The notes beneath the pieces were generated by a model. The model was given only the letters and a program-made list of their open reading frames with translations, made no database searches and was not told the origin of the DNA. Position numbers and translations under genes: made by a program. From a virus, in IMG/VR virus record IMGVR_UViG_3300037851_001030, positions 1 through 64,000 of that record: a DNA stretch of 64,000 nt; one strand, given 5' to 3'. This document shows positions 1-61,526 of this stretch, piece by piece; the stretch's first letter is position 1, and each line of letters opens with the position of its first letter.

Positions 1-1941
1 GGCGCGCGCCACGAGCGGTCCCGGGGTCGCGATCGACGCCCGGTGCAGGCGCAGGCGGATCCTAACAACCTGAACCGCGTCGCCAAGGCGCTTGGTCAGG
101 TTCGCGACCGTCAGCGAGTCCCAGCGGTCGGCCGGGTACATGGCGGGCGTCTGGAAATCCCAGGCGATGTTGGAGCCCTCCTCGTCCCACTGAGTGAAGC
201 TCACGGTCTCGGCGTCCCCACCCCCGATTTCGACCGTCGCGACCGCCATGCCGTCGAGCACCCCGTCCTCGAGCGCGAGCACCAGAGGACCAGCGCTCTT
301 GACCTCGGCCCGACGGATACCATTCAACGCCAGGCCGGGTAGCGTGCAGTCGACCATCGCCTGGGTCGTGCCCCACTTTAGGTAGCCACCCGGGATCCCG
401 GTCTGGAAGCAGTTGTGAACCAGTAGGCCCTCGACCACGTACGTGGGATCGTTTTCGACTTCGAGGTTGTAGACCTGGCCGGAGTACACCGTATGCGACC
501 GGGAAGCACGACGCACTCGAGACAACAGTGCCTCGCTCTTAAACGGCCAGCGACCCTTACGGGTACCTTTGTAGGCATCTCCCCTCTCCCAGCTAACAAC
601 GTAGGCTGGAAGACGCGAATTTACATTCGGGGTGAGAGCCTTGGCTTGCACACTGCGCAGAAGGGGCTGGTACCCTAGTCGATGTAGAATCTCCCCTATC
701 TGCAAGGCCAGAACTTTAGATGTCTGGGTGACCGTATTTTCTCCGCCGTTGTCACCGGCATAGATCCCCGACAGCAGAGCCCATGCCTTTGCTCTCGGCA
801 GTCTCATCCAATCTTCCGGGATACGCTTCTCGTGGCAGTGGGCGCCCAGGAAGTTTGGTAGCCACTGTGCGAGCGTGGTTCCGTACACGTTCACGTCCAA
901 GCCGTGGCTGCCTGGCCGCTGCGACACCGAAGTATTGTAACCGTATCTCTGGAAGAATGCGCGCACGCGATATTGGAGGTCAACTTCGTCCTCATGCAGG
1001 GAGAACGTTACCTGCCGCTTGCCAGCGCTGCCCTCGGCCAGGTACAGACCCATGACCCAGAAGAAATCCTCGTCTGCCTGGAACACGATACTGCCTTGGC
1101 GCTTTCCACGTTCGCGTTTGTCAGTGAACTGACGTGGAACTGTGATCTGCTCAAGATCCTGGTCTGGCCGGCGGTCCCATACTGGAACAAGCCAGTCGTC
1201 CTCGTGAATCGATTCTGCCGTTCGCCAACCAAGCGTGTGCTGTGGAAGGTAATGACTATCGAGATACTCCTTTGCGGCAGCCTGCGCAGCGGCCGCGGTG
1301 CTGTAGACTCCTAGGTGGAACCGACCCTGTTTTGGTGGCATCCCTGGAGCCGTAACCCGCATCTGCCAGCGGTCCCTACCCCGTCTGCTGGGCTTCGATG
1401 GCTTGGGCACACCGTCCCCGCGAGCGATGATGCGGTCACAGGTCTTCGGACCGCAAGGTTCCTGCCGGTGGCGAACGCTTATCAATCCGTAGAATGGGTG
1501 CTCAGGCGTGACCCACAACGGTCCGGGCGAAACGGTCGAGGTGACCGTACGCAGGTGACCGGTGTACGGCCGCGAGTGAACGGATTTAACCTTGTTGTAA
1601 TCGCCCTTCGACGTCATTACAAAGTCGCCCACGACCACGTCCTGGATCGGGACCCAGCCCCGTGTTGTTCGTACCAGAGTATCTGGCATGAAACAGACGG
1701 GGCACGCCATGTAGGGCGTGGCTCCGAGCGCGTGGCAGGAGCACCGGCGTCCGCTCGCGATCCGCTGGTAGAACCAGACGTCGCACCACTCGACGGTGTG
1801 ACTGGTCTTGGCTCGCTCTTCTATCGCCGGATACGTCTGGGTCGCGTGGAGATCCGAAAGCCAGAAGTGCGGTTGCCGAAACACATCGCTGCCATCGAAC
1901 CGACGCGTTGGTTCCTTGTTGCGGTAGCTTCGTCCGGACAT
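1..1941 (-). CDS. Edge-truncated CDS (first 647 codons; the C-terminus lies left of the window): zinc-ribbon (CxC...CxxC) phage protein interrupted by an intein
   Basis: Absent from the ORF track because no stop codon falls inside the window. Manual minus-strand translation from ATG 1941..1939 (MSGRSYRNKEPTRRFDGSDVFRQPHFW...) is stop-free down to position 1. Third positions are GC-rich. A GGGGTGAG run lies about 9 nt upstream of the ATG. Confidence 0.85.
   Translation of the reverse strand, partial: MSGRSYRNKEPTRRFDGSDVFRQPHFWLSDLHATQTYPAIEERAKTSHTVEWCDVWFYQRIASGRRCSCHALGATPYMACPVCFMPDTLVRTTRGWVPIQDVVVGDFVMTSKGDYNKVKSVHSRPYTGHLRTVTSTVSPGPLWVTPEHPFYGLISVRHRQEPCGPKTCDRIIARGDGVPKPSKPSRRGRDRWQMRVTAPGMPPKQGRFHLGVYSTAAAAQAAAKEYLDSHYLPQHTLGWRTAESIHEDDWLVPVWDRRPDQDLEQITVPRQFTDKRERGKRQGSIVFQADEDFFWVMGLYLAEGSAGKRQVTFSLHEDEVDLQYRVRAFFQRYGYNTSVSQRPGSHGLDVNVYGTTLAQWLPNFLGAHCHEKRIPEDWMRLPRAKAWALLSGIYAGDNGGENTVTQTSKVLALQIGEILHRLGYQPLLRSVQAKALTPNVNSRLPAYVVSWERGDAYKGTRKGRWPFKSEALLSRVRRASRSHTVYSGQVYNLEVENDPTYVVEGLLVHNCFQTGIPGGYLKWGTTQAMVDCTLPGLALNGIRRAEVKSAGPLVLALEDGVLDGMAVATVEIGGGDAETVSFTQWDEEGSNIAWDFQTPAMYPADRWDSLTVANLTKRLGDAVQVVRIRLRLHRASIATPGPLVARA
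412..1695 (-). mobile_element. Intein (428 codons) with LAGLIDADG homing-endonuclease core
   Basis: N-junction ACPV|CFMPDTLVRTTRGWVPIQDV (Cys1, block A-like). C-junction VYNLEVENDPTYVVEGLLVHN|CFQ (His-Asn then Cys+1). Two LAGLIDADG-type motifs: FFWVMGLYLAEGS and ALLSGIYAGDNG. Confidence 0.8.
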
Positions 1942-1943
1942 AC

Positions 1944-1972
1944 CCAAAACTCACCCCGACGGCTAGTTTTGG
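1944..1972. repeat. 8-bp perfect inverted repeat (CCAAAACT / AGTTTTGG, 13-nt spacer) filling the 33-bp gap between two divergent start codons
   Basis: Read directly: cat-ACCCAAAACT-caccccgacggct-AGTTTTGGT-catg. The symmetry extends to 10 of 12 positions including both ATGs. Confidence 0.7.
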
Positions 1973-1974
1973 TC

Positions 1975-3111
1975 ATGCCGACGTACACACGCGAAAGCAC
2001 GGTGGCTTTCGAACACCAGTTCGTGGACCTTCACGGCGATCCAATCCCACCGGTCGACGTTACGTATCCGCAGGTACAGATCGAGAACCCAGGCGGAGCA
2101 ATCGTGGCGTCCGGTATCGCGGTGGCCATGACGCCCGGGACCTGGCAGTGGAGCTGGACGATCCCAGCGGGCGCCACGCTCGGTGACGGCTGGCGCATCC
2201 GCTGGTCGCTCGTGGACCCAAGTCTGTCCACGCATGAGGCGGTAGAAGCGTTCGCGATCGCGGACCAGGTCCGGAGCCCTACGGGACTCGACCGCCTTGG
2301 AGCTTATCTCTGTGTACTTGGACAGAGCGAGCGGATCGTGTGGAAGGACGACTCCGACCCAGAGTACCTGGACCTCACGCTTCGGTCCCGAAGCGAGACG
2401 ATCGGCACCTGGAACAAGACCTTGCTAGTGCCGCCCGTGCCGTTGCTGTCCTACGTCTACGATCAGGGTCTCCACGTCTACTACGCCGATACGCCGGCCA
2501 TGACGACGTGGGGCGACTACCTGGCCCTCTGGAGGTCGCGGCCGAACGCGGCGAGCGCGTACGTGACCGAGACCCAGATGGTGCACGTTCCGCACGACTC
2601 GTTCTTCTTCTACGTGCCGTACCTACGCCAGCTCCTCGACAAGCTCGGCAAGGTCACGACGACGCCTCTCAGCTACCTCGACCTCGAGCTGTACCAGGCG
2701 TTCACACGCGGCCTCGAGTTCGTGAACGGCCAGGTGCCCTTCACGACCTGGACCTGGACCACGTTCCCGGAGAGTTTCGTGACCTGGTGGGTGTTCGCCG
2801 CCGGCATCTACGCGCTGGAAGCTCGTCAGCTCCTAGAGATCGAGCTTCAGCACAGCGCACAAGCCCTCAGTGTGACGCTCGAGTACGACCACCACAGCCC
2901 ACTATCCGAAGTGATACAGAGGTACACCACCCTGCTCCAGGAGTGGTTACCCAAAGCCAAGCTCGGAGCCTACCGCATGGCGGCTGGGCCTGGATCGGTG
3001 GGCGTACGACCGCTACGCCTGAGCTGGACGAGCCGAGTATTCAAGATCGGGAGTTCCAATAACCCGCTCGGAGATCTCGCCAACCTGATGTCCGCCTTGG
3101 GTTTACCGTAA
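1975..3111 (+). CDS. Hypothetical phage protein (378 aa), probably structural
   Basis: In-frame ATG at 1975 inside track ORF 1315..3111. Upstream of it the opposite strand is the real gene. From MPTYTRESTVAFEHQF the composition looks like a real protein. Confidence 0.75.
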   Translation: MPTYTRESTVAFEHQFVDLHGDPIPPVDVTYPQVQIENPGGAIVASGIAVAMTPGTWQWSWTIPAGATLGDGWRIRWSLVDPSLSTHEAVEAFAIADQVRSPTGLDRLGAYLCVLGQSERIVWKDDSDPEYLDLTLRSRSETIGTWNKTLLVPPVPLLSYVYDQGLHVYYADTPAMTTWGDYLALWRSRPNAASAYVTETQMVHVPHDSFFFYVPYLRQLLDKLGKVTTTPLSYLDLELYQAFTRGLEFVNGQVPFTTWTWTTFPESFVTWWVFAAGIYALEARQLLEIELQHSAQALSVTLEYDHHSPLSEVIQRYTTLLQEWLPKAKLGAYRMAAGPGSVGVRPLRLSWTSRVFKIGSSNNPLGDLANLMSALGLP

Positions 3112-3154
3112 CGATATCACATAGTTAGTTTCTAAGGTATCTATTATTGACTCC

Positions 3155-3437
3155 ATGGCCGCCTTGACCTACCCGCGGGTTCGCGGCCAACGCCGACTTC
3201 GTCGACTATTGCCACCAAAAGGTTATCCACGTCGACGGCGACTACTGGCACGGACTTGCTAACCCTGCGCGGCAGCGATACGATCGCGCCATCGACCGCT
3301 GGTGCTTCGATCACGGCTGGTCGTACGTGCGCCTGTGGGAGTCGCACATCTATTCGGACCCGGATCTGTGCTGGGCCCTGGTCTGTCGGATGCTTCGCAG
3401 CCCTACCTGGCTTGGCTTGCGATCGGATGGGTCTTGA
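3155..3437 (+). pseudogene. Start-less or frameshifted remnant of a Vsr/DUF559-like PD-(D/E)XK endonuclease
   Basis: The frame opening after TGA 3165..3167 reads ...ANADFVDYCHQKVIHVDGDYWHGLANPARQRYDRAIDRWCFDHGWSYVRLWESHIYSDPDL... to TGA 3435..3437. There is no ATG/GTG/TTG in that frame before codon 54. The only nearby ATG (3155) is in the adjacent frame. Confidence 0.45.
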
Positions 3438-3440
3438 AAT

Positions 3441-3818
3441 CTACAGCGGTTCGATCACGTTGACCGCGACTCGGTTCTCGGCGAATTGCTCTAGGTGAAT
3501 GTGGCACTCCTCGAGTTTCCGTGCAAAGCCCACGGCCACCAGCACCATCTCCACAGCCGCGGGTGACGGTGCTCGTCCTGGGTCCGGAGACGACATAGAC
3601 AGGTGCCGGTACCACCCCGTTGGGTGCTCCTCGACGCTAAGCGCAACCCGCCAGCCAAGGGGCAGATCCACGAACTGATCGAGGGGCACGGGGCTTCCCT
3701 TCCACGAGGGGTTGGAGCCTTGAGCGTACGCCTTTATCGTAGCGAGCGGGATCCTACGCTCGGGGCTTTCGGCTAGCGCCATCAGCTTGCGCAAGCTCGA
3801 CTCTATCTCCGGAGACAT
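3441..3818 (-). CDS. Hypothetical protein (125 aa)
   Basis: Internal ATG 3818 of track ORF 3441..4265 (MSPEIESSLRKLMALAE...). The upstream part of that ORF is Arg/Pro-rich off-frame read-through. Confidence 0.65.
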   Translation of the reverse strand: MSPEIESSLRKLMALAESPERRIPLATIKAYAQGSNPSWKGSPVPLDQFVDLPLGWRVALSVEEHPTGWYRHLSMSSPDPGRAPSPAAVEMVLVAVGFARKLEECHIHLEQFAENRVAVNVIEPL

Positions 3819-3829
3819 TATGAATGCCC

Positions 3830-4225
3830 TCACGTTGGGCGCCTCCTTCTCCGCCGCTTCCGCTGGATCGGTAGCGGCGGCGGCCTCGGTACCGGCTTCA
3901 TGTCGGCATGCGTAATGGTTGACGCCGGCCGTCCATGAGGCATCGACGTCCAGCAGGCTGCGCACACGAGGCGCAGGGCCTTGGTCCACGGGTACCGCTT
4001 CATGGTCCGCCAGTGGTATGGATTCCGACACAGCATGCAGCGGTAGAGCGCGGTCCGAACGCAGCGGTCCAGCGTCGTGCTGTAGCGATGCCCACAATCT
4101 AGCAAAAGCGATACATGAGTTCCCGAGACCTCTAAGACCGTGGCAAACGCCCCAGACCGCGCGCACGCGAACGAGCGGTCGGACGCCGTAAGGCGCACGC
4201 GGTCTCGGGGACGAATCGGGCGCAC
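3830..4225 (-). CDS. Hypothetical Cys-rich protein; start uncertain
   Basis: GC-rich third positions across ...RVRLTASDRSFACARSGAFATVLEVSGTHVSLLLDCGHRYSTTLDRCVRTALYRCMLCRNPYHW.... A candidate GTG at 4225 lies 2 nt after the TGA of the upstream gene. Confidence 0.4.
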   Translation of the reverse strand: MRPIRPRDRVRLTASDRSFACARSGAFATVLEVSGTHVSLLLDCGHRYSTTLDRCVRTALYRCMLCRNPYHWRTMKRYPWTKALRLVCAACWTSMPHGRPASTITHADMKPVPRPPPLPIQRKRRRRRRPT

Positions 4226-26485: not shown

Positions 26486-27781
26486 CTACGCCGACTCGAA
26501 GTCGGGCGGCGCCCCGCCGTGCAGGGAATTCGAGACCGGGGCCGTAGTCGAACACGACCCGCTCAGCCTAGTCCACTCCCATTCGAAGACCGCGGGCGGG
26601 TCCCGTCTCTGGGAGCTTAGCTCAGTAGATACAGCCACCACCGAGTCGAACCACACGTCCGAATCAAGCGGCGTGAGCGAGCACCCAGTCCACAGCTCGG
26701 TGAAGGGCTCTCCGCTATCTAGGGCGCTGCCGCTATCGAGGGGCCCACTGTCGAAGGGCGTGCCCGCCCCTAGCCCTGGTGGTAGCACGACGGCGTCGGG
26801 TCGATACGACCAGAACCGGCGCGCGACCTCGACCGACGTTGAGGGTGACACGAACGCCATCCAGGTGTCCATGGTCCCTATGAGGCCGAGTAGATACTGT
26901 AGGTTGTGCTGCGGCCAGTGGCTGTGGAGCACGGTCTGCCAGCCAGGCTCGTCTCCCTCGTCTGTGGGGTCCCAGGTGCCCATCCCGACCCCGATATAGG
27001 AGGTCGCTTCGACCGCCGACCGGAGGCGTAGTTGCTGAGGCACGTTGACCGCGAGCTGCCAGAGGGCGCGCTCACGTGCGGTGGGTAGGTCTGGGAGCCA
27101 GACGTTGAACTCGTAACCGTGATAGCTGGCGGGCGCCGGCCACAGCGTGTGTATCGCCGGGTCTACAATCGACCCCGGTATCATGGGTACGATGATGGGC
27201 GACCCGAGGGAGAAGGCCGCCGCGATCGAGTCGATCCCGAGCGTGGTGGGCGCCCCGTGAAAGACCGCACGACCGAGAAGCTTGACGGCGAGCGCTCGCA
27301 GGGCCTGGGTGTCAGGCAGCGACTGATGGTACTTGAAACGGAACTCGGTAGGGCGACTCGACCAGCGCGACGTCAGGCTCCAGTACTGAACCAGGTAGTC
27401 GAGGTACGTGTGCCGGAAGTAGTCGAGCGCCGCGCCCTTGTGAACAAGGGCCTGGTAGGAGAGCGAGACCCCGATCGATGCCTCTTCCCCGACGTCGTCG
27501 ACCACGCGCACCCAGTTGACGTCGGGCCACGGGGCAAGCGGACCAAGCTCCAGACGCACCGCGATCGAGTCGAGACCTATCTCCCCGACGAGACCGCCGT
27601 TCAGGTACACGCGGACTCGGCGCCCCATCGTTCCGGTTATCACGAACGCGGTTCGTGCCTCGATGGGCCTCGGGTTTGGGCCCGAGGTTGTGTACGCCAG
27701 TCCCGGCGGGATCGCGGCCATGATCCGCTGGAAGACCTGGTCTTCGTAGGATCCTACGGGCGCGATCGCGAGCGCGGTCAC
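26486..27781 (-). CDS. Baseplate-module structural protein (431 aa)
   Basis: GTG start in a GTGA overlap with the J-like gene. Function is suggested only by its position downstream of that gene. Confidence 0.7.
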   Translation of the reverse strand: MTALAIAPVGSYEDQVFQRIMAAIPPGLAYTTSGPNPRPIEARTAFVITGTMGRRVRVYLNGGLVGEIGLDSIAVRLELGPLAPWPDVNWVRVVDDVGEEASIGVSLSYQALVHKGAALDYFRHTYLDYLVQYWSLTSRWSSRPTEFRFKYHQSLPDTQALRALAVKLLGRAVFHGAPTTLGIDSIAAAFSLGSPIIVPMIPGSIVDPAIHTLWPAPASYHGYEFNVWLPDLPTARERALWQLAVNVPQQLRLRSAVEATSYIGVGMGTWDPTDEGDEPGWQTVLHSHWPQHNLQYLLGLIGTMDTWMAFVSPSTSVEVARRFWSYRPDAVVLPPGLGAGTPFDSGPLDSGSALDSGEPFTELWTGCSLTPLDSDVWFDSVVAVSTELSSQRRDPPAVFEWEWTRLSGSCSTTAPVSNSLHGGAPPDFESA

Positions 27782-29169
27782 AGGGCCACCACCCTCAGGT
27801 TGACGACCGGGTACTCGTGCGGCGCGAAGATGATGGGCTGCACCAGCATCGTCGCGCGATCCGGACGGTTGAACTTGTTCAGGACCATGCTGACCGAGAG
27901 CCTTGCCGTGAGGTCGTCGGCAAACGCCTTCGGGTCAAGCTCAAGCACGAAGTGCTGACGCGAGGTCAGGAGCGTGGGGTCTCGGAACCACCGCGTGACG
28001 AGGCTCTCGACGTCGGTCACGCGTGCCCCCGCGCCGTAGCTCGTGACCACCAGCTCGACGTCAACCGGAACCTGCTTGCCTTCGCGTACGATGGCGTCGG
28101 TTTGGAAGAGCTGAGCGTTGCTCTCGTTCATGTAGTTGTGGAAGTCGAGCACGAGCGCGTTGTAGCTGTAGGCCACGTAGACCGTATGCCCCGGTCCTGG
28201 CGCGGTGTCGAGGTCGATGGCGTCCTGCGCGAAGACCGTGCCACGAGTCGCCGGAGCCGTATCCCGTATGATAGTGTAGGTCGCCGCCACGCCGTCGACG
28301 AGCACGGCCGTTACCTCGAGCAGCGGGGCCTCTGGCAGCACGATCGTGGTCTCGGTGCCCGAGGTCGTGTACGTGTAGTCGGTCACGCCCAGTCGAGACC
28401 CGATGACGTAGATGTCGATCATCGAGCGCACCATACCGCTCGGCAGCCGCTCGAAGACGCCGACGTCGGCCGGCGTCAGTACCGCAGTGTCCTCGACCGC
28501 GCCCTGGGTGAAGCGGATCCCGAGGCTGGCGAGGCCGCCGGGCGTGCCGAGTGAATTTCCGAGTAGGACGGAGCGCAGGTCGTCGACGAACTCCTGGAGC
28601 GACTGGTTGGTGGAGCCGCCACGGAACTCGGAACTCGTGACACCGGAGACCCCCGAGATAGGGGTCTGGAGCACGTTGACGCTGCCCTCGGCGCAGTCGT
28701 AGTCGGGCCCGATCTCGACGGCCTCGGCCGGAACCGTGATCTCGTAGCGCCGCCTGCTGGCGACGAAGTAGGCCGCCACGTTGGCTGCGAAGAAGGTCAC
28801 GGCCTGGAGCGTCTTGTAGAAGTAGCGGCCGTCCGAGGTCGACCCCAGGGTCCCTTCCTCGATCGGTGTGTCTGCCTTGATCTCGTATGCGTAGAACGTC
28901 AGGTAGCCCTGGGACGGAGTGCCCTGGCTCAGGCTCATGCCGTAGTCACGGCCGACGGATGCGATCTCCTCGGTGGACCAGCGGTCAGCCGTCTCGAACT
29001 GGTAGCGCTGCGCCAGCGCATCGTTGGCAGCCTCTTGCTTCGATATCTCGACGGCCCATGGGTAGTGCGCGGTCTCGTAGACGGGGCCCTTGCGGGTGTC
29101 CACGTTCGGATTGATAAGCTCGGTGGTCTCAGCCATCGAGCGCGTGATTTCGTCGACGTCGCGCGCCAC
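27778..29169 (-). CDS. Baseplate J (gp47/gpJ)-like protein, 463 aa
   Basis: GYLTFYAYEIKADTPIEEGTLGSTSDGRYFYKT and VNVLQTPISGVSGVTSSEFRGGSTNQSLQEFVDDLRSVLLG follow the baseplate-J family pattern. Confidence 0.6.
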   Translation of the reverse strand: MARDVDEITRSMAETTELINPNVDTRKGPVYETAHYPWAVEISKQEAANDALAQRYQFETADRWSTEEIASVGRDYGMSLSQGTPSQGYLTFYAYEIKADTPIEEGTLGSTSDGRYFYKTLQAVTFFAANVAAYFVASRRRYEITVPAEAVEIGPDYDCAEGSVNVLQTPISGVSGVTSSEFRGGSTNQSLQEFVDDLRSVLLGNSLGTPGGLASLGIRFTQGAVEDTAVLTPADVGVFERLPSGMVRSMIDIYVIGSRLGVTDYTYTTSGTETTIVLPEAPLLEVTAVLVDGVAATYTIIRDTAPATRGTVFAQDAIDLDTAPGPGHTVYVAYSYNALVLDFHNYMNESNAQLFQTDAIVREGKQVPVDVELVVTSYGAGARVTDVESLVTRWFRDPTLLTSRQHFVLELDPKAFADDLTARLSVSMVLNKFNRPDRATMLVQPIIFAPHEYPVVNLRVVAL

Positions 29170-30025: not shown

Positions 30026-30027
30026 AG

Positions 30028-30100
30028 TGGAGCCGGGAGGACTCGAACCCCCTACCTCTAGCTTGCACAGCTAGCGCTCTCCCAGTTGAGCTACGGCCCC
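30028..30100 (-). tRNA. tRNA-Ala (anticodon UGC), CCA not encoded, unusual G at position 33
   Basis: GGGGCCG-TA-GCTC-AACTGGGA-GAGC-G-CTAGC-TGTGCAA-GCTAG-AGGTA-GGGGG-TTCGAGT-CCTCC-CGGCTCC-A. G3:U70 alanine identity pair. Canonical T-loop. Confidence 0.85.
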
Positions 30101-33464: not shown

Positions 33465-36400
33465 CTATGTCCATCCCGATGGGAAGTAGAAGTTGATCGT
33501 GACTCCGCTGCCCGTAGGCCCCGTCGGTCCCACCGTACCAGCCCCCGTCGGTCCCGTAGGTCCCGTAGATCCGTCCCCAGACCCACCGCCCGTCGGACCC
33601 GTGACCCCTTGTGGCCCGGTCGGCCCCGTCGTGCCATCACCACCGCCACCCGTGGGACCCGTGACACCTTGTGCCCCGGTTGGCCCCGTTACGGTCGAGG
33701 CCTCACCCTGCTGGCCGGTGGGACCAGTTGGTCCGGTAACGGTAGAAGCGGAACCCTGAGCACCCGTTGGCCCGGTGGGTCCCGTGACAGTTGACGCCGC
33801 ACCTTGGGCACCCGTTGGTCCTGTCGGGCCCGTCACCGTACTCGCCGCACCCTGGGCGCCTGTAGGACCCGTGGGTCCCGTAACTGTGCTTGGGGATCCA
33901 GTCTGACCCGTCGGTCCTGTCGGGCCCGTGACGGTAGAAGCCTCCCCTTGCTGCCCCGTGGGGCCGGTAACGGTAGAAGCGGTGCCCTGCGCACCGGTCG
34001 GTCCGGTTGGCCCTGTCACAGTGGATGCAGAACCCTGTTGCCCCGTGGGTCCGGTCGGACCCGTCACGGTTGAAGCTGATCCTTGTTGTCCCGTCGGACC
34101 TGTTGGTCCGGTAACGGTCGAGGCCTCGCCCTGCTGACCTGTAGGCCCGGTAGGACCAGTGACAGTCGAGGGGCTGCCTTGTGCTCCCGTTGGACCTGTC
34201 GGTCCAGTAACCGTGCTGGCGGCGCCCTGAGCGCCCGTAGGACCAGTGGGTCCCGTGACCGTGCTATCTGCTCCGATAGATCCGGTGGGCCCGGTAGGGC
34301 CGGTTACCGTAGAAGGTGACCCCTGTTGACCCGTGGGACCCGTAGGGCCGGTAACCGTGCTCGCAGCACCTTGTTGCCCAGTAGGCCCAGTTGGTCCCGT
34401 TACGGTCGACGCCGACCCCTGTTGCCCAGTAGGCCCAGTTGGTCCCGTTACGGTCGAGGCCTCACCCTGCGGTCCCGTTGGTCCCGTCGGACCCGTTACC
34501 GTGCTATCAGCACCGATAGACCCAGTGGGACCCGTAGGGCCGGTGACGGTACTCGCGGATCCCTGCTGCCCTGTGGGTCCAGTGGGACCGGTAACGGTCG
34601 ATGGGTTACCTTGCTGGCCGGTCGGCCCCGTGGGCCCCGTGACGGTGGACGCCGACCCCTGTTGCCCGGTCGGTCCGGTTGGGCCCGTAACAGTTGAAGG
34701 CTCCCCTTGTACCCCTGTCGGGCCCGTGGGTCCCGTAACTGTGGAGGCTGCCCCTTGCTCGCCAGTTGGCCCAGTCACCGTGCTGGCGGAACCCGGCTGC
34801 CCCGTAGGACCCGTTGGCCCGGTCACGGTCGAAGGCGTACCTTGTTGACCGGTGGGACCCGTCGGACCGGTGACCGTAGAAGGAGACCCAGTTTGTCCTG
34901 TGGGCCCGGTTGGTCCGGTCACTGTGCTAGGGTCACCCTGCTGTCCAGTCGGACCGGTTGGTCCGGTCACGGTAGAAGGCGATCCAGTCTGTCCCATCGG
35001 ACCCGTGGGTCCGGTTACTGTGCTACTCGCCCCCTGTTGACCCGTCGGTCCCGTCGGACCCGTCACCGTGGACGGGTCCCCTTGCTGTCCGGTAGGACCG
35101 GTCGGACCCGTTATCGTCGAGGCCGCGCCAGGCTGCCCGGTCGGTCCGGTTGGTCCCGTAATGGTACTCGCGGATCCTTGTTGACCCGTTGGTCCAGTCG
35201 GACCAGTGATCGTGGAAGCCGATCCCTGTTGCCCAGTCGGGCCTGTCGGCCCCGTGACAACACTGGGCGCGCCTTGAGAACCGGTAGGACCCGTTATCGT
35301 CGAGGCCGCGCCAGGCTGCCCGGTCGGGCCAGTAGGACCAGTAACCGTGCTGGGAGAGCCCGTCTGACCCGTGGGTCCGGTCACGGTGGAGGGATCGCCC
35401 TGCGGTCCGGTCGGTCCCGTCACTACGGACGCGTCCCCTTGCTGTCCCGTAGGACCCGTAGGTCCCGTAACGGTACTTGCAGCTCCAACTGATCCAGTGG
35501 GCCCCGTAGGACCAGTTACCGTAGATGCCGATCCCTGAGCACCCGTGGGCCCAGTTGGGCCCGTCACTATAGACGGTGATCCCGTCTGTCCTGTTGGGCC
35601 CGTTGGCCCGGTAACCGTAGAAGCTGACCCCTGTGAACCAGTTGGACCTGTCGGGCCCGTCACGGTCGAGGGCGCTCCCTGCTGGCCGGTCGGTCCTGTT
35701 GGGCCAGTGACGAAACTATCTGCCCCGATGGGTCCCGTCGGACCCGTCGGACCTGTGGTAGTAGAAGCCGCACCTTGCGACCCTGTCGGCCCCGTGGGTC
35801 CCGTCACCGTCGAGGCCGCGCCCGTGGGGCCGGTCACCAGACTGGCGGCACCCGTAGGACCCGTCGGCCCAGTCGGACCGACGTTGGTCTGAATAGATAC
35901 GACGGACCCGAGCGTGCTGAGCCGGAAGTCTACGTAGTCGTCACCCGTGCCAGTCGATCGAATTCGGCTCTTCACCGTGTTCGAGTACGAGTTATCCGAC
36001 TGGATAATCAGGGTAGCGATAGCCTTCCACTCAACGAACAGGGCGCTTAGTTGGCCGGTAGCCAGGCCAAAGATCTCGGTCAGAGCCCCATCACGGGCGG
36101 CGCTTACGGTTGTGTAGCGGGCTTGCCCCATCACGATCTTGATAGGGGTCGCAATATCGGTCGTGGCGATCACATGGGCCAGAACGTAATCGCCGTTCGT
36201 GATCTCCGTTAGCTGCCACGAGCCAGTCACCAGCTCGTTCCAGGCAGCCCGTCCGCTGCCCGTCGTTGTGACCGGGAAGTTGGTAGCCGCTACCCGCCGC
36301 CACTCCGTGGCCCCCGAGCGGTAGAGGATAGGGGCCTGAAGGACCGTGGACAACGTCTGGGGCGCTCCGTTGGTGATCGCGTAGGTGATGTCCTCGTCGC

Positions 36401-37490
36401 AGATCGAGCCGTCGTCCACGGAGCACTGAGCGTGAGAATCCAGCGCGCCAGAAGCGTCGGCCGTGATGTTCCCGAGTGCAAGCCCAGACCGGTACCGGGT
36501 GCCCTGAGTGATGTGCTCGTAGAGATGAGTAGCGGCATCCATGATCCTTCCATGCCGCTCATCTCCGACGACTACCGCGTACGCAGTCGCCTGGTTCCAG
36601 TAGATGGTCGCGACGAACGCGAACTTGAGGATCAGGTCGTCCGAGTACGTCATGGTCGAGGTCAGCGTTCCTGACGCATCGAAGTAGACGTAGTGGATCC
36701 CCGTGGTGTTGCTGATCACCCTGTTCTGCGCGGTCGTCTTCACGAACTTCATGCCGCCGGAATAGAACGTGAAGTCCGATCCAGTCGGGGTGATCGTCAG
36801 TGTTAGGCTGCCCTCGGTGAATGAGAGCGTGGTCTCAGATCGGTCAACGAAGCCGTTCTCCGGACTGCCACCTCGCACATCAGAGAGGAGAGCGTAGACC
36901 TTGCTGTTGGAAGAGGCCGAGTTCTCCAACAGCACGTAGTCCGTGCCTGTCGGGGAAGACAGCCCTGTTATCCCAGCGATCTCGCCCGATACGCTCTTGT
37001 GGAAAGCGTCCGTGTCCGAACCGCTCGCTGGACCAGTCGGGCCTGTGGACCCTTGGGTCCCAGTGGGCCCCGTGACGGTGGACGCTTCGCCTTGCGCTCC
37101 GGTTGGACCCGTAGCGCCCGTGGGCCCGGACGGACCGGTTACCGTGCTAGGGCTTCCCTGCTGTCCCGTCGGACCGGTAGGCCCCTGTATTCCGGTTATC
37201 TGACTCCATACAGCGGAACCGGCTGAGGCGTTGGTGCAGACGTATTCGGTCCCGGCCACCGTGTTCAGCCAGAGAGACCCTACTTCGTAACCCAGACTGG
37301 TGTCATCGTTAGACGTGGGGTCGGTAGCCGCCGCATAGTTGTTCTTGACCGAGTCGACGACCTTCACGGCCCCATTGCGATAGACCCTGAGCACCTTGTC
37401 CGTGGTGTTGAACCACACCTGACCTTCTACAGGGGTCGCCGGGTCGGAGGTGAGCAGGTCAAATTCGAGGCTGTTTATCTGAAGAGGCAT
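33465..37490 (-). CDS. Giant collagen-like fibre protein (1341 aa): N-terminal fibre-type domain, short GXY segment, globular domain, then about 50 units of a 16-residue repeat
   Basis: Full track ORF. N-terminus has fibre motifs ([34 protein letters not shown]...AVWSQI). C-terminal two thirds are [16 protein letters not shown] units. Confidence 0.9.
33500..35895 (-). repeat. In-frame 48-nt coding repeat array (GPTGPTGxQGxxSTVT units)
   Basis: A 48-nt period is visible directly in the DNA. Units are near-identical at the amino-acid level but differ at many third-codon positions. Confidence 0.9.
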
Positions 37491-37491
37491 A

Positions 37492-42117
<4,626 letters not shown>

Positions 42118-46057: not shown

Positions 46058-47167
46058 CTACAAGATCCCAGCCTTCTCCAGGCGGGACCGGATGAAGTCC
46101 TCTACGTTCCGCTTCCAGTATGGCACGCGAATGAGAACAACACCATAGTATCTAGCAAGACATCGCTTCCTGTTATCGGATCTCCGCGACTGTGCAAGCC
46201 GCTTACTACCGTAGCAGTTTTGATAGTGAAGAAAGCCTTGATATTCAAAGGCTACGCCGTGCTCTTTGTTGTAGCCATCGAGTTGCAGCGATCGCGTGCC
46301 ACGTCCACGGAGCCACGTGGGGCTACTTCGAGGGAACTTCCACCCCGTTAGGCGCTCAAAGATCAAACGAACTCTCTCCTCTTCTATGGACCCACCATTA
46401 CCTGTAGGAAAACAGTCTGGACAAAGGCGGTGACCACGAAGCACCTCGTGGCAACTTGATATCCATTCTGTGCCACATGCCCGACAGACCAAGGTAGTAT
46501 CATAAGAGATACCATAGTATTCGCCGATGATGCTGACCCCAATCTTGCGCAGTCGTTGAGCAACTCGAGACTGAGGAACGCGACGTTTTTCGGATACCTT
46601 TCGGTACTGGCATTTGGGACATCCACCATTGTCTGAAAAGATGTCGTGAGGGCGGGTCTTCCAACGGTATCCGCAGGTGGTACAGCGCGTGTTTACTTTG
46701 GTCCTGTTGTTTAGATACGTCCCCAGCAGTGTGAGCCCTCTCTCGGAGTATCGACGCTCCGCCTGTTTCTGTGTCACAGCCTTCGTTCTCGAACAGTGTG
46801 GGCACCCGCCATAGCTATTGATAGCCATTGATCGTACTCGGGCGGCCGGGCGCTTCCACGTCCCCTTACATCGGTCACAACGAAGGGCCACGCTCCGACC
46901 GGTTCTTGAAATCATGGAGAGACCAAAGGATTTCAGCCTCTTTTCTATCTCTCGATCCGTCAATTTCCTGTTCGGTCGGCAAAAAGGACACCGATTCGGA
47001 CCAGAGACGATGGACCGAAAAGCATCTCTTGTAGATGACCAGGTCTGCTTGCATCGCGTGCAGAGAACCTCTGATAATTCACGGGATGGATCGTGAATAT
47101 CCAACAAAATCAAGTTCTTACGTGATAGTCTACGACGGACTTCGGCGTCAGATAGTTTGGCTGGCAT
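46058..47167 (-). CDS. Free-standing homing-endonuclease-like protein: four zinc-ribbon modules plus a C-terminal PD-(D/E)XK-type nuclease domain
   Basis: Four C..C...W...(x)...CP.C modules (CTRCKQTW..CPFC, CDRCKGTW..CPHC, CTTCGYRW..CPKC, CRACGTEW..CPDC). C-terminus LQLDGYNKEHGVAFEYQGFLHY...VVLIRVPYW. Clearly more A/T-rich than the flanks. ATG 47167 is preferred over the GTG at 47176. Confidence 0.75.
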   Translation of the reverse strand: MPAKLSDAEVRRRLSRKNLILLDIHDPSRELSEVLCTRCKQTWSSTRDAFRSIVSGPNRCPFCRPNRKLTDREIEKRLKSFGLSMISRTGRSVALRCDRCKGTWKRPAARVRSMAINSYGGCPHCSRTKAVTQKQAERRYSERGLTLLGTYLNNRTKVNTRCTTCGYRWKTRPHDIFSDNGGCPKCQYRKVSEKRRVPQSRVAQRLRKIGVSIIGEYYGISYDTTLVCRACGTEWISSCHEVLRGHRLCPDCFPTGNGGSIEEERVRLIFERLTGWKFPRSSPTWLRGRGTRSLQLDGYNKEHGVAFEYQGFLHYQNCYGSKRLAQSRRSDNRKRCLARYYGVVLIRVPYWKRNVEDFIRSRLEKAGIL

Positions 47168-47185
47168 GCCAAACACTACGCCGTT

Positions 47186-56302: not shown

Positions 56303-58810
56303 CTACGACGATACAGTCCAGGTTCCGATGTAGCTCGTCGCATGCCACTTTCCAGCCACTATACACACTAGACGAATCGCAGCGCCGTTGTCTGTAGCAC
56401 TGATCTGATCTGTACCCGAAGTCTCACTAGTTCCGATTCTGATTGTATCCGAGCCATTCGGTACTATCGTCATGGTGTCATCGTTCTGAAGCACGAACTC
56501 GTAGTTCAGACCAACAGCGGCGGTGGGCAAATTGAATGTGATCGGGGTGGTGGTACCTGTGAAAAGGTTGCCGGTCTCAGACGTCAGAATTGTTCTAGGG
56601 GTTGATCCCTGACTCCGGACCAGGACGTTTAGGGGCATAACCGCTGTTGATGATCGGGAACCATCTAGGTATCCATCAACATACCCAGTAGTCCTCAGTA
56701 GCTGATTGCCCATCACGGCAGAGCCGTTGTTGTAGGGCGAGGACGTGTTGTTGAAACTACGATATTGGAAGGTCCGATTCGCGCCTATCGGGATACTTAG
56801 CGTAAGGTTAGTCGTGTTTGCATACCCGTTATTTGCGTCAACCCACGTGAAGCCTATAGGAGCTGTATCAGAGGTGCTTGGGTTTGCTGAGGGTGTTGCG
56901 GTCTCTGTGTAGATCTGGAACCATGCTGCCCCATTCCCGCTGGAGTGCGCACCACTGAATTCCGTCAGTAGCGAACGCGCTGTAGCAGGAGCCCACGCCG
57001 AAGCATCAACGCTTTGCGGGCTAACCTTCCATGTGCTTGTATAGTCTGCGATAGTGCCAGCAGCATCAAGAAGAAACAGGCTCCCTATCTGGTACCATTT
57101 TCTGATGTCTGTGTTGTTATACACCGCACCGAGATAACGCCAAACAGCATATCCTGTGGGTCCAGTCGAAGGGGGCGAGATCGACCCAACAACGGCCAAC
57201 TGACCGGCCGTTGCGCTAGGTACACCATAGATGTACCACCACCCGTTCGATTCCGATCCTGTGTCCCTTCCACCTAGTCCGGAAGTCGTGATATCGAACG
57301 TCAGTGTTCCGGTATACGTGTATCTTTGACCGTCGTTGAGCAGAACGCGTAGTTCGCTCGAGGCGCCCGGACCAGCCTTGACATTCACCACAGAGGCAGA
57401 GCTGTACTCCAAGATCGGAACGTTCTCCGGCTGGACGTAGCCGCCACGGAACTGCAAAACCCCTATCTTGGCATCATACAGGTAGAACGCATTTGTCGCA
57501 TACTTTGCCTGGATCTTCAGCGTGTGCGCGCCGGCTGTGGCGAAGGTGTAGTTTCTCGAGAAGCTGAGATCGAGAGCTATCCCAGTCCCTCCGTTAGATG
57601 CCGCCGGGGCGTCCAACGCAACCCCGTCTATCACCCACTGGACGTAAGCGTTGTATGCGCCGGCAACATAGGCATTGCCTTGGAAGTTGAGTTGCACACT
57701 TTCGCCAGCTAGCGTAGTGATCGTAACGGATAATCCAGACACGTCCGTGTACGACGTATTACTTACAGAGATAGGATTGGTTGCTGCGTTGGCTGTAGAA
57801 GAGATAGCGCCTGTTGTTCCATTGAACGTGATGTTGGCTTTACCGTCGACATTAGCTATATCGACATTGGGGCCGATGAAATTGAACGAACGCGGGGTAT
57901 CAATCGCCGCAACCCCGTCGTGCTCAACGGGTACCAGACCCCCACGGAATTGAAACACATCGAGGCGCATTCCAGCTTTTGGTGTCCACTGCGCAGTGCC
58001 GTAAGCTGCCTGCACCTTGATCGTATGCGATCCAGCACCTGTTAGAGCAACCGCACGAGGGGCGCCTAGAGGTGCCGCGTACGTTCCAGTCCTTCCCAGC
58101 AAGCGATCTGCACTCCCACTTGGAACAGCGGCCCCATCGACATTCAAACGAATCATCACATCGGCCAGCGAAGCACCTTGAAGCCCCCACCCAGAGATAC
58201 ACACCAGAACAGTTTCGTTGCCAGATGTCGTAACGGATACACTAAGACCTGAGATATCAGCGTAAGTAGGGTGCGCGGACGAAACTGCGGACGCATCAGC
58301 GGACAACTCGGCAGACGTCGGGATAATGCCGCCCGCACCACTACCACTAACCAACGTCCCCCTTACTACTGCCCTGGTGTAGGCATCTGAATTCCAGGTC
58401 CCGGTCCCAAGAACGCGGCGCCACTGGATCTCAATCGTGTGCGAGCCTGCTGTCAGCTCGACACTTCCAACCATCGTCTTATACCCTCGCACAGGTGGGC
58501 TAGCGGCTGTAGCTATTCCCCAACCCGTGTTATCACTTCCGACATAGATTGGCGTACCCGCAACATCTATAGCTATGCGGTACCGACCTTCCTCCGTGCC
58601 AGACGTCGCGAATCCATCGATCATCAACTGGATCAGGTAAGTACCTGTGACAGGTACTACAAACGTACCTGTGGAACCAGACATTTGAACGAACGTGCCG
58701 CTTGTCGTAGACGTAACTCCCGGAGCTGCATCCAACATAGGTACCGTGATGCCTGGGATAGATACAAATGCGTTAGCTACTTGATCGACTTTAAGAGATG
58801 GAGTTGGCAT
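56303..58810 (-). CDS. Large fibre or receptor-binding-type protein (835 aa), lower GC
   Basis: Full track ORF, ATG start. Internally repetitive Ig/jelly-roll-like segments (…HTIEIQWRRV…, …HTIKVQAAYG…, …HTLKIQAKYA…). Confidence 0.8.
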   Translation of the reverse strand: MPTPSLKVDQVANAFVSIPGITVPMLDAAPGVTSTTSGTFVQMSGSTGTFVVPVTGTYLIQLMIDGFATSGTEEGRYRIAIDVAGTPIYVGSDNTGWGIATAASPPVRGYKTMVGSVELTAGSHTIEIQWRRVLGTGTWNSDAYTRAVVRGTLVSGSGAGGIIPTSAELSADASAVSSAHPTYADISGLSVSVTTSGNETVLVCISGWGLQGASLADVMIRLNVDGAAVPSGSADRLLGRTGTYAAPLGAPRAVALTGAGSHTIKVQAAYGTAQWTPKAGMRLDVFQFRGGLVPVEHDGVAAIDTPRSFNFIGPNVDIANVDGKANITFNGTTGAISSTANAATNPISVSNTSYTDVSGLSVTITTLAGESVQLNFQGNAYVAGAYNAYVQWVIDGVALDAPAASNGGTGIALDLSFSRNYTFATAGAHTLKIQAKYATNAFYLYDAKIGVLQFRGGYVQPENVPILEYSSASVVNVKAGPGASSELRVLLNDGQRYTYTGTLTFDITTSGLGGRDTGSESNGWWYIYGVPSATAGQLAVVGSISPPSTGPTGYAVWRYLGAVYNNTDIRKWYQIGSLFLLDAAGTIADYTSTWKVSPQSVDASAWAPATARSLLTEFSGAHSSGNGAAWFQIYTETATPSANPSTSDTAPIGFTWVDANNGYANTTNLTLSIPIGANRTFQYRSFNNTSSPYNNGSAVMGNQLLRTTGYVDGYLDGSRSSTAVMPLNVLVRSQGSTPRTILTSETGNLFTGTTTPITFNLPTAAVGLNYEFVLQNDDTMTIVPNGSDTIRIGTSETSGTDQISATDNGAAIRLVCIVAGKWHATSYIGTWTVSS

Positions 58811-58818
58811 GGGTCACC

Positions 58819-60030
58819 CTATGTCGAGAACACGCAGGTGATAATGTCGCCCGCGGTCAAGCTGGTTGTCACGAGCGTAGTGGGAGCGGAGTATCCGTAC
58901 TCGAGGCCCGTGGAAGGCGACGCTTGGTAGCGCAGGCGCTGTCCGTTTCGATACACACCCAATATGTTAACGCCCGACAGCATGTTCGCGTTGGTCGCAG
59001 GCGTCGCCCCTAGCGTGAAGTTCTGCTGTCCGGTGGGTCCGGTGGCCGTGAACTCCTGCTCGCGGAAGTTGGCCCCGCTGCCTCCGCCTGTGGGCCCCGT
59101 GGGCCCGGTAGCTGACGCTGACCCCGTGGGTCCGGTCGGACCCGTGACCGTGCTCGCGGCGCCCACGCTCCCCGTAGGTCCCGTCGGTCCGGTTGGACCC
59201 GTGACCGTGCTCGCGTCGCCTGTTGGCCCTGTTGGGCCCGTTGTAGATCCTGACCCCGTGGGACCGGTCGGACCCGTGACCGTGCTCGCGTCCCCCGTGG
59301 GGCCCGTTACGATAGGGCCCGTCGGTCCCGTCGGACCCGTGATGTCGCTCGCGCTTCCCGTCGGTCCCGTCGGCCCGGTCGCTGTGGGTCCGGTCGGACC
59401 CGGGACCGTGCTCGCGTCGCCTGTGGGGCCGGTAACAGCGGGACCGGTTGGACCCGTGACCGTCGACGGAGACCCCGTTGGGCCCGTGGGTCCAGTCGAC
59501 GCTTCTCCGGTCGGACCCGTGACGGTCGAGGCCGCGCCCTGAGTTCCGGTTGGCCCAGTCGGACCCGTGACGATGGACGCCAACGTCTCGTTGAGGTCAT
59601 TGGCGTAGCGCTTCATGCTCTCAGGCGGGAGCTTGAGGCCGCCCTCGGTCAGGATATAGGCGATCGCCTGGCAGCTCGTACCGTCGCCGAGGGGGAACGA
59701 GCGGGGCTTCGACCAGCCGTCCGCGTTCCTCGCTCGCAGGCTGAAGCAGTACCCGCCGATCACATCAAGCGTGATATCCGGGTTCTGGACGGTCGACACG
59801 CCATCCGTGAAGTCGTCGTTCGTGCCGCTCGCCACCGTGCTTGTGGCCGGGTATCCACCCTGATTGTAGGGATCGCCTGCGGTTCCTAGCGGCAGGACGC
59901 TCCATTCCCAATCCGTGATCGGACCGTTGGTGGCGGATCCCGTCAGCGTAATGGTCTTCGGCAAGGTCGACGCCGCGTAGCTCGCGCTGTGACTCCCACC
60001 GATTAGCGCCGTGCAAACTGGAACCGGCAT
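58819..60030 (-). CDS. Collagen-like fibre protein (403 aa): Ig-like N-module, GPT repeats, C-terminal knob
   Basis: ATG preceded by GAGGTGAAGC. Central [21 protein letters not shown]... region. Confidence 0.85.
59055..59580 (-). repeat. In-frame GPT-rich collagen-like coding repeats
   Basis: Same repeat family as 33500..35895 and 37775..41800. Confidence 0.85.
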
Positions 60031-60038
60031 GCTTCACC

Positions 60039-61526
60039 TCAGAGCGGAATGATGACTCGGGCCACGCGGGTCTCGGCTTGAGCCAAGAACCACGTGGGGA
60101 ATAGGGACACGGCGAACGGGACCTCGGTCAAGTCGTTGGTGCGCGCATACAATACTAGCTCCTGGGCCCCAAGGACCGTCTGCTGGAACCGACAGCAGCA
60201 GGCCAGCGCCCGTGAGTTGAACCCTTCGATCTCAACGGTTCCCCAGGCAGACGGCGTTATCAGCTCGGTCGTATCCTCGCTGCTACTAGGTAGGCGCGCC
60301 CAGCGGGGCTGCTCCCAGCTCGTTCCGATCCGCGCACGGGTCAGAACCAGTGCTCGACCTTGTTGGGCCCCGCGGACCAGGTTCCGGCCCATCGCGGTCA
60401 GAGCCGCTCGCGGGGTTCTAATCGAGGTCGGACTAACGCGAGTTCCTGGCTCGTAGAGTACTTGGACGACGTCCGCGGCGTATGCGCTTTCTGTTGACAC
60501 GCGCGGGAATAGCCTGCCGAAGCCAACGTCGTCGGAAGCGCGGGCTGATTCCTCCACGATTACTTGGGTAGTGGTAGACAGATCTCCAAGCAGCGCTGTT
60601 GGATCGTTGGTAAGGTATCCGCTAGTGGACGAGAAATTGGACCCGTGGTCTATTGACTCCCATACTGTGGTGGTGCCACCATAAGACGCTGTGATGTAGA
60701 CGTGCTGTCCGTCTGGCGACCATAGGGGCCGGACCGAGTTTAGACCGGAAAACGGGGTCTGATTCCCAGTCTGCAAGGTGTGAGATGATCCGTTGTACCT
60801 GGCTACCCGAAAGTCGAACGCGGTGTAGAAAACACCGGCGGCGTACACATGGGAGGAGTCGGGCGCGTGCAGAGATCCGGATGCTCCATAGGCAGACCAA
60901 GCGAGCTGACCGCAATTAACGAAGCTGGACCCGTTCCACTTGATCAGGTGTCGCCCGCCCTCGAAGCATGAGATGTATACCTCATTGGGACCGCAGCCCC
61001 ATACTCCAAGAGGAGGATCTGGTGTGAATCCTACGTCCGCACACAGCTCTGACCAGCGGTCGGTCCAGGTGGCTCCGTCCCAGTATCCGACGTGCTGATT
61101 TCCAGCACCGCCGGCTCCGCTAACGTGCCATATGTCAGTTAGGGAGGAAGCCCAGGCCTGCATTCCCAGACCGGACCAGCCTGAGTTTCGCATATATACC
61201 CAGGTACCCGATTCGTACTTGGATATATGCCCTCCCGACATCATGATGAGGTCGCCACCGCCAACGTCTACGATCTGAGTCCAGTCGGGCGTTGTTCCAG
61301 GGTGACCTGTATTCACCCAAGACGAGGCGCCGCTTGGCAGTCTCCATATCTTTTGTGCGACATGGTCACAGACGAATATGTCGCCGTTCCTCGTCCCTGC
61401 CATGGCGCGTCCGCCTGAGGCAGCGACGATAGGCGGTTGGTAAGGAAACGTTGACCAGGACCCAGACCCAAGGGTCTTCTCGTACAGAGTCTTGTTTGCG
61501 GGGGACCAGAGTAGAGCTTTCTTCAT
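60039..61526 (-). CDS. Beta-propeller-like protein (about six blades, one Asp-box-like SIDHGSNFS), E-S-A-x-A-x-D linker and C-terminal domain, 495 aa
   Basis: Recurring blades: GDIFVCDH..IWRLPSGASSWVN, GDLIMMSGGHISKYESGTWVY, TDIWHVSG...VGYWDGATWTD, NEVYISCFEGGRHLIKWNGSSFVN, SHVYAAG...VARYNGSSHTL, QHVYITASYGGTTTVWESIDHGSNFS. Confidence 0.7.
   Translation of the reverse strand: MKKALLWSPANKTLYEKTLGSGSWSTFPYQPPIVAASGGRAMAGTRNGDIFVCDHVAQKIWRLPSGASSWVNTGHPGTTPDWTQIVDVGGGDLIMMSGGHISKYESGTWVYMRNSGWSGLGMQAWASSLTDIWHVSGAGGAGNQHVGYWDGATWTDRWSELCADVGFTPDPPLGVWGCGPNEVYISCFEGGRHLIKWNGSSFVNCGQLAWSAYGASGSLHAPDSSHVYAAGVFYTAFDFRVARYNGSSHTLQTGNQTPFSGLNSVRPLWSPDGQHVYITASYGGTTTVWESIDHGSNFSSTSGYLTNDPTALLGDLSTTTQVIVEESARASDDVGFGRLFPRVSTESAYAADVVQVLYEPGTRVSPTSIRTPRAALTAMGRNLVRGAQQGRALVLTRARIGTSWEQPRWARLPSSSEDTTELITPSAWGTVEIEGFNSRALACCCRFQQTVLGAQELVLYARTNDLTEVPFAVSLFPTWFLAQAETRVARVIIPL

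Follow-up and report, generated by a model that had tools for sequence, protein, structure and literature searches.

A LAGLIDADG intein before the fourth cysteine of a predicted zinc ribbon in a probable virion neck protein of a tailed phage

At the left end of the IMG/VR virus record IMGVR_UViG_3300037851_001030, a long minus-strand reading frame runs out of the sequence, and within it an initial annotation, made from the letters alone, had placed a 428-codon LAGLIDADG intein that splits a cysteine motif. Is this frame a gene, is the insertion a complete intein, and which protein does it interrupt? We addressed these questions in the window, that is, the whole 64,000-nucleotide stretch analysed (positions 1 to 64,000 of the record). 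We consider it highly probable that the locus encodes a 428-residue class-1 LAGLIDADG intein, located directly before the fourth cysteine of a four-cysteine motif in a probable virion neck or head-completion protein, and that splicing would restore this predicted zinc ribbon.

Translation of the minus strand from position 1941 to position 1 yielded 647 codons without a stop, in agreement with the initial annotation. The gene is missing from the open reading frame (ORF) list because the lister omits ORFs that run off the window end. The leftward extension that had been proposed was achieved with Logan contig SRR12687606_92440 (locus L001), which carries the same sequence as the window and reaches the stop without a frameshift, giving a complete precursor of 747 amino acids; the first 647 codons occupy 1..1941 (−), and the last 100 codons plus the stop lie left of the window at L001:15890-16192. 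The precursor start, MSGRSYRNKEP, is kept in homologs. With a genome GC content of 63.6%, the GC content at third codon positions (GC3) of the exteins was 0.86, typical for the genome. This value, together with the continuation to a stop and more than 200 homologous cluster representatives, ruled out an artefactual frame of high-GC DNA and confirmed that the GC3-biased frame is a real gene. A plus-strand ORF of 598 amino acids (1315-3111) was also considered as a rival gene over the 5′ end of the intein gene and rejected, since only 1975-3111 is called and conserved: the ORF is an upstream over-extension of a 378-amino-acid gene, and its first 660 bases are antisense to the intein gene and not conserved as coding sequence. 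A scan of positions 1-3300 revealed no promoter or terminator.

The precursor is divided into three parts, all on the minus strand. The N-extein (1696..1941; amino acids 1-82) ends with the first three cysteines of the ribbon, CSC at 1735-1743 and CPV at 1696-1704, which are invariant in a 91-sequence alignment. The intein follows (412..1695; 428 amino acids, precursor residues 83-510), exactly at the coordinates first proposed and delimited by profiles, fold, empty alleles and GC3. The C-extein, of which residues 511-647 are inside the window (1..411; from translation and homolog alignment), begins with Cys+1 (Cys511, 409-411), the fourth ribbon cysteine, and continues with FQTGIPGGYLKWG. Codon-by-codon inspection and alignment of relatives located Cys1-FMPDTLV (splicing block A) at 1672-1695, TPEH (block B, TxxH motif) at 1498-1509 and the terminal block VYNLEVENDPTYVVEGLLVHN (blocks F and G), ending in His-Asn, at 412-474; the C-terminal junction reads ...LLVHN|C. 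The predicted boundary chemistry, comprising Cys1 in CFMPDTLV, the terminal block and Cys+1, was thus found in every position where it had been placed.

We then evaluated the splicing domain by profile and fold. The Hint profile check on residues 83-510 was positive: Hint_2 (PF13403) scored 31.8 bits at residues 82-134, above its gathering score of 28.4, and NCBIfam intein_Cterm (TIGR01443) scored 26.9, above its cut-off of 15.6. Across eleven related inteins, Cys1, T63/H66, E221, K290, D315, H427, N428 and Cys+1 are invariant or nearly so, with T63 and H66 nearly invariant, H427 and N428 invariant, and Cys+1 present in 10/10 relatives aligned with the window intein. An AlphaFold model of the intein, built from an alignment of eleven related inteins, had a mean predicted local distance difference test score (pLDDT) of 85, and its best fold match in the PDB was PI-SceI (E 1.9e-16), followed by the TliVMA, PhoVMA, PI-PkoII and PI-PfuI inteins; PI-PkoII was also weakly matched by the intein sequence. 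The window intein shares the architecture of PI-SceI (yeast VMA1), TliVMA, PI-PkoII and PI-PfuI, in which a LAGLIDADG endonuclease with two motifs interrupts the Hint domain and a further DNA-recognition insert follows block B, and it has the same Cys1, TxxH, His-Asn and Cys+1; it differs from this group in sequence (12-14% identity only), in its host protein and in its phage setting.

Three observations weigh against a functional splicing domain. The intein N-terminal region model TIGR01445 scored 14.7, under its cut-off of 24.5, and Pfam Intein_splicing (PF14890) scored 18.2, under 35.8. In addition, block F has Asn where many inteins have Asp, an exchange that is common to the whole clade. 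That only some profile models pass their thresholds could be taken to mean that the mature protein retains the insert, either as a Hint-type domain that does not splice or as a domesticated one, or that the gene is a dead pseudogene. We regard this as highly improbable: all four splicing positions and the 747-codon frame are intact, no stop, frameshift or set of homologs conserving the insert as a non-splicing domain was encountered, and, if the insert stayed, the fourth cysteine would remain about 428 residues away from an otherwise invariant four-cysteine motif. Judged from its residues, the element is a complete, in-frame, predicted class-1 intein with all splicing residues present.

The empty alleles, which had been proposed as a check, also argue against a retained domain, as homologs lack the insert at precisely this point. 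A search with the conceptually spliced extein revealed two proteins without the 428 residues, P0001 (86% identical) and P0002 (46%), and six further homologs without the intein, of 315-392 amino acids, came from a profile search (P0001-P0008 overall, 300-392 amino acids). All eight read CPVC-YMVGIPGG or an equivalent, with no gap at the predicted CPV|C junction. At this position P0001 reads CPVC-YMVGIPGGYIKWG, and the window reads CPV[intein]C-FQTGIPGGYLKWG; in the DNA alignment, the empty site is TGTCCCGTT|TGCTATATGGTAGGAATTCCGGGTGGT, the second part beginning with TGCTAT. The P0001 gene (L002:3937-4896) was called from an internal ATG, and the conserved VSGRSYRNKEP begins with a GTG that lies 57 nt further upstream; with this GTG as the true start, P0001 and the spliced extein are collinear over 319 amino acids. 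The intein boundaries are therefore set both by the motifs and by comparison with empty alleles, with the insertion between Val82 and the fourth ribbon cysteine.

The spliced motif is C67-x-C69-x10-C80-x2-C83. The initial annotation had described a CxC-x12-CPVC ribbon rebuilt by splicing; the four cysteines hold, and the spacer is ten residues, not twelve. Its placement of the insertion within a predicted metal-binding knuckle also holds, the junction being inside a four-cysteine motif that is invariant in 91 family sequences. Following established intein chemistry, Cys83 would begin an N-S acyl shift, Cys511 (+1) would attack by trans-thioesterification to form a branched intermediate, Asn510 would cyclise to release the intein, and an S-N shift would join the exteins as ...MACPV-CFQTG..., with Cys511 replacing Cys83 and completing the CxxC knuckle. 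The ligated junction is predicted as ...MACPVCFQTGIPGGY... and the junction peptide of the spliced product as ACPVCFQTGIPGGY; the mature protein would then bind zinc and fold.

The arrangement of cysteines around the junction also raises the question of control. The precursor already has the CxC...CxxC tetrad of the mature protein, made up of Cys67, Cys69, Cys80 and Cys1 of the intein itself, and a cysteine is found at −3 both here and in 8/10 inteins of the clade. The intein could then be a conditional switch, in which zinc or a Cys80-Cys83 (−3/1) disulfide holds Cys1, delays splicing and times maturation of the virion protein. Precedent exists, as a Cys-3/Cys1 disulfide "redox trap" controls the engineered Ssp DnaE and native Pyrococcus abyssi MoaA inteins (PMC3922620), and zinc inhibition of splicing is documented, according to titles in the reference list of the same paper. 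As in the redox-trap inteins, a CxxC spans the N-terminal splice junction here; in contrast to them, this CxxC is one half of the host's predicted four-cysteine metal site. We nevertheless consider such a switch unlikely, since most family members have no intein and a −3 cysteine arises automatically from insertion into a CxxC motif, requiring no adaptive explanation. More speculative still is a broader version of this idea: the intein would gate the maturation of a virion neck protein by zinc or redox state, Cys1 standing in as the fourth ligand until splicing passes the position to Cys+1, and the clade as a whole may specialise in the second cysteine of CxxC knuckles, aided by the AP2-like unit described below.

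Setting control aside, we returned to the intein as a mobile element and investigated its endonuclease. The LAGLIDADG homing-endonuclease domain, delimited by profile, conserved residues and fold, occupies 571..1080 (−). Both LAGLIDADG motifs named in the initial annotation lie inside the intein: motif 1, FFWVMGLYLAEGS, is at 1027-1065 (−) and contains GLYLAEGS with Glu221, and motif 2, LLSGIYAGDNG with Asp315, is at 745-777 (−). The catalytic Glu221 and Asp315 are invariant among related inteins, as is Lys290 (826-828, −). In structure comparisons the domain matched I-DmoI and I-Tsp061I (probability 1.00), and also PI-PkoII and PI-PfuI.

Two results weigh against a fully active nuclease. Scanned alone, the endonuclease domain scored 21.2 bits with LAGLIDADG_3 (PF14528), just below the 22.5 cut-off, and motif 2 is off-consensus, reading AGDNG where seven relatives have G[VI]xDGDG; the endonuclease could therefore be weakened. 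These features are consistent with an intein late in its homing cycle, in which splicing is kept, the homing endonuclease is decaying or dead and the lineage is left with vertical inheritance only. We view this as possible, though not favoured: Glu221, Lys290 and Asp315 are kept, the domain is not truncated and its fold is predicted with confidence, and the low GC3 suggests that the intein was acquired fairly recently.

Between block B and the endonuclease, alignment and model secondary structure delimited an insert of about 130 residues (1081..1470, −) that links the N-terminal Hint half to the endonuclease at the position of the PI-SceI DNA-recognition region. The insert differs from the PI-SceI-type region in consisting of an AP2/Arm-like unit plus a small CxPxxC element. 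The latter, PCGPKTC (1438-1455, −; alignment of related inteins), follows a motif conserved in the insert across relatives, C-x-P-x(1-2)-C, and may represent a small metal site within the intein. The element, with His residues nearby, is kept in all close intein relatives, including P0161, which has no AP2-like unit.

The AP2/Arm-like unit itself (1252-1389, −) was recognised in the secondary structure of the predicted model, where strands 103-105, 109-115 and 125-131 are followed by a helix at 134-148, with a pLDDT of only 61-85. The window insert matched Arm-DNA-bind_3 weakly (E 0.03). Among homologous inserts, 4/5 matched AP2 (PF00847) at E 7e-6 to 1.6e-3, with 19-27 bits, under the gathering score of 33.3, and we therefore name the unit AP2-like without filing it as an AP2 member; the P0054 insert weakly matched an HNH-endonuclease PHROG and an integrase PHROG. 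It counts against the assignment that the window copy has no Pfam AP2 (PF00847) match. The more distant inteins P0161, P0163 and P0164 lack the unit, which was therefore gained or lost within the clade. The intein thus appears to carry an extra, putative AP2-like DNA-binding unit. HNH-AP2 homing endonucleases of phages and cyanobacteria likewise join an AP2-like DNA-binding unit to a homing nuclease, whereas the nuclease here is a LAGLIDADG enzyme embedded in an intein. We know of no description of an AP2-like unit on a LAGLIDADG intein, and a literature search returned nothing describing an intein together with an AP2 domain and LAGLIDADG, or an intein in a neck protein.

How the intein reached this site can be approached through its distribution. 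Among the 150 best family representatives, the insertion was found in four: P0010 (this protein) and three distant members, P0054, P0066 and the N-terminally truncated P0062. Their inteins are homologous and occupy the same site, the relatives reading CHV|C and CVS|C at the junction. When identical protein pairs are compared, identity amounts to 42-44% in the inteins and 26-29% in the exteins. The most similar intein of all, that of P0158 (45%), is in a different host family at the equivalent cysteine, and its host shares only a helix-plus-knuckle module with the family (hhalign 96.5% over 59 columns). Further related inteins interrupt phrog_2806 proteins (at CSR|C and CDR|C) and a phrog_2807 protein (at CKV|C), and others were located at the presumed catalytic cysteine of a papain-like peptidase (P0163; QSPS|C...HN|CVGHS) and within a 4Fe-4S, ferredoxin-type CxxCxxC motif (P0164; CVFCGL|C...HN|CVDACP). 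In total, 8/10 clade inteins lie directly before the second cysteine of a CxxC, which is what gives them a cysteine at −3. The GC3 of the window intein is 0.65, compared with 0.86 for the exteins, and is low uniformly over the intein sub-domains.

The sporadic carriage, the higher identity of inteins than of exteins, the other hosts and the GC3 drop together point to horizontal spread by homing, as read from these comparisons. By established homing biology, the free intein would cut intein-less alleles near the coding stretch of the conserved CxxC-xGxGxxGG during co-infection, and repair would then copy the intein into the cut allele. As the most conserved stretch of the family, the site would be a stable target, and its obligatory cysteine would supply the +1 nucleophile. 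We found no close copy of the intein in cultured phages (INPHARED), and tblastn with nine related inteins revealed no second intein in the window. In the genome of P0066, a connector-like homolog of 869 amino acids (L007:6386-8995, −) has its own unrelated LAGLIDADG intein, with junctions GGEMQF|CVTGDTLV...IVSHN|SLGAQD and Ser at +1; since this gene and the P0066 gene each have an intein, two nearby virion-module genes have both been invaded.

Inteins are well known from conserved motifs of phage proteins, including portal and terminase (PMC5050341, PMC4760082). The mycobacteriophage inteins surveyed by Kelley et al. 2016 (PMC5050341) are mostly of the LAGLIDADG kind, lie beside invariant residues of conserved motifs, and have portal and terminase among their hosts. 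The present clade is connected to them, as relatives of the window intein are found in homologs of the cluster-C-type actinophage proteins phrog_2806, 2807 and 3170. It differs in its host: none of the 13 mycobacteriophage host groups was identified as this zinc-ribbon protein, and one of the groups is an unnamed hypothetical protein (PMC5050341).

We characterized the host family by searching 1.84 billion cluster representatives exhaustively with a profile. At E <= 0.001 the family comprises at least 207 members of about 320 amino acids, the majority between 300 and 350; the 8-sequence family alignment also found two IMG/VR loci. In the 91-sequence alignment (mean identity 20%), the only invariant columns are four cysteines (C48, C50, C61 and C64 of P0001) and one glycine, within the family motif GRRCSC-x9-14-CxxC-xGTGxVGGYxKxG. 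The intein therefore breaks the single most conserved feature of its host family. With its two conserved cysteine pairs, the four-cysteine motif is a predicted metal site, presumably a zinc ribbon. The host product of about 319 amino acids comprises an N-terminal helix, the four-cysteine ribbon (CxC-x10-CxxC, then xGxGxxGGYxKxG) and beta-sandwich domains.

The host is not a classic intein host, as had been noted at the outset. The protein has no Pfam or NCBIfam match, Pfam was equally empty for eight family members, and PDB sequence searches with extein profiles gave nothing significant. Neither megablast of window positions 1-4000 nor tblastn of the spliced extein found a match in 50,697 phage records, and tblastn of family members P0035, P0124 and P0142 in the same records was also negative. 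There is no close copy of the host family in cultured INPHARED phages, and these negative searches therefore leave no cultured relative that can be used for annotation.

Its probable role was approached through structure, database names and neighbourhood. The extein model (pLDDT 93.7; predicted template modelling score 0.89) had near full-length matches to uncharacterised proteins from the phages Motura (Achromobacter) and pEa_SNUABM_5 (Erwinia). Partial matches of about 95 columns were obtained with BFVD entries named "head closure knob", "neck protein" and "neck hetero-dimeric protein" (E 6e-7 to 8e-3) and with chain 9mkb_0 of the T4 portal-neck-tail complex (probability 0.99). Among the 91 family members, five have a match in phrog_38102 or phrog_1004, each of which bears the name "virion structural protein", and the C-terminal extension of one member matches PHROGs of the same name. 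The knuckle motif is also present in the phrog_2806 proteins, where a related intein is found; they correspond to a protein of cluster-C-type mycobacteriophages and to Rhodococcus phage E3 gp108. The latter is annotated as "structural protein", and the tail sheath gene follows 3-4 genes downstream of the phrog_2806 genes.

The neighbouring gene points in a similar direction. On the plus strand at 1975..3111, a divergent gene encodes a 378-amino-acid, head-tail-connector-like protein (phrog_17327, E 2.3e-10). It begins 33 bp from the ATG of the intein gene, on the opposite strand. Connector-like homologs occur near the family gene in L002, L003, L006 and L007; the connector-like gene directly adjoins the zinc-ribbon gene in L001 and L006, and other genes intervene in L002, L003 and L007. 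The connector-like protein of the window had no BLASTP match in E3 gp106 or gp107.

Overall, we lean towards a virion neck or head-completion protein, on balance only slightly. Several points weigh against this role. The family profile gave no signal against T4 gp13 and gp14 (hhalign probability 0.1% each), and in L003 and L006 the family gene also has primase, sigma-factor and RecA genes in its vicinity. The role is stated as probable because it draws on partial fold matches, neighbourhood and database names. Points of resemblance to the T4 neck proteins gp13 and gp14 are the connector-like neighbour gene and a fold match, partial and about 95 residues long, to the portal-neck-tail complex; points of difference are the missing sequence-profile similarity and the four-cysteine motif, which the T4 proteins do not have.

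Elsewhere in the window, matches to a baseplate wedge subunit (phrog_6; 27778-29169, −) and to tail-fibre PHROGs (58819-60030, −) support a tailed-phage genome and suggest a contractile-tailed phage. Two adjacent giant proteins of 1341 and 1445 amino acids (33465-37490 and 37492-41829, −) have collagen triple-helix repeats and are presumably fibres. A free-standing HNH endonuclease gene (46058-47176, −; phrog_559, E 1e-39) adds a second kind of homing element to the genome. A single tRNA-Ala (TGC) gene is located at 30027-30100 (−). The genes at 56303-58810 and 60039-61526 (−) have GC3 values of 0.54 and 0.65, compared with 0.75-0.87 for most window genes, hinting at a mosaic origin.

In kind, the element is a PI-SceI-type intein; what is new is the host family, the insertion site, the position at a predicted metal-ligand cysteine in a probable virion protein, the apparent CxxC preference of the clade and the AP2-like unit on a LAGLIDADG intein. 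For annotation, an 83-kDa "hypothetical protein" would become a 35-kDa protein plus a mobile element. The AP2-like unit hints at how target recognition is extended in LAGLIDADG inteins. The precursor offers a natural case in which Cys1 and Cys+1 would compete for one ligand position, and would be a convenient system in which to ask whether metal or redox state controls splicing. The intein catalogue gains a host family and a site, the host being a widespread, unnamed phage family with a four-cysteine motif, probably of the virion neck, and the rule that inteins occupy the most conserved, functionally essential residues is extended to a predicted metal-ligand cysteine of a probable virion protein.

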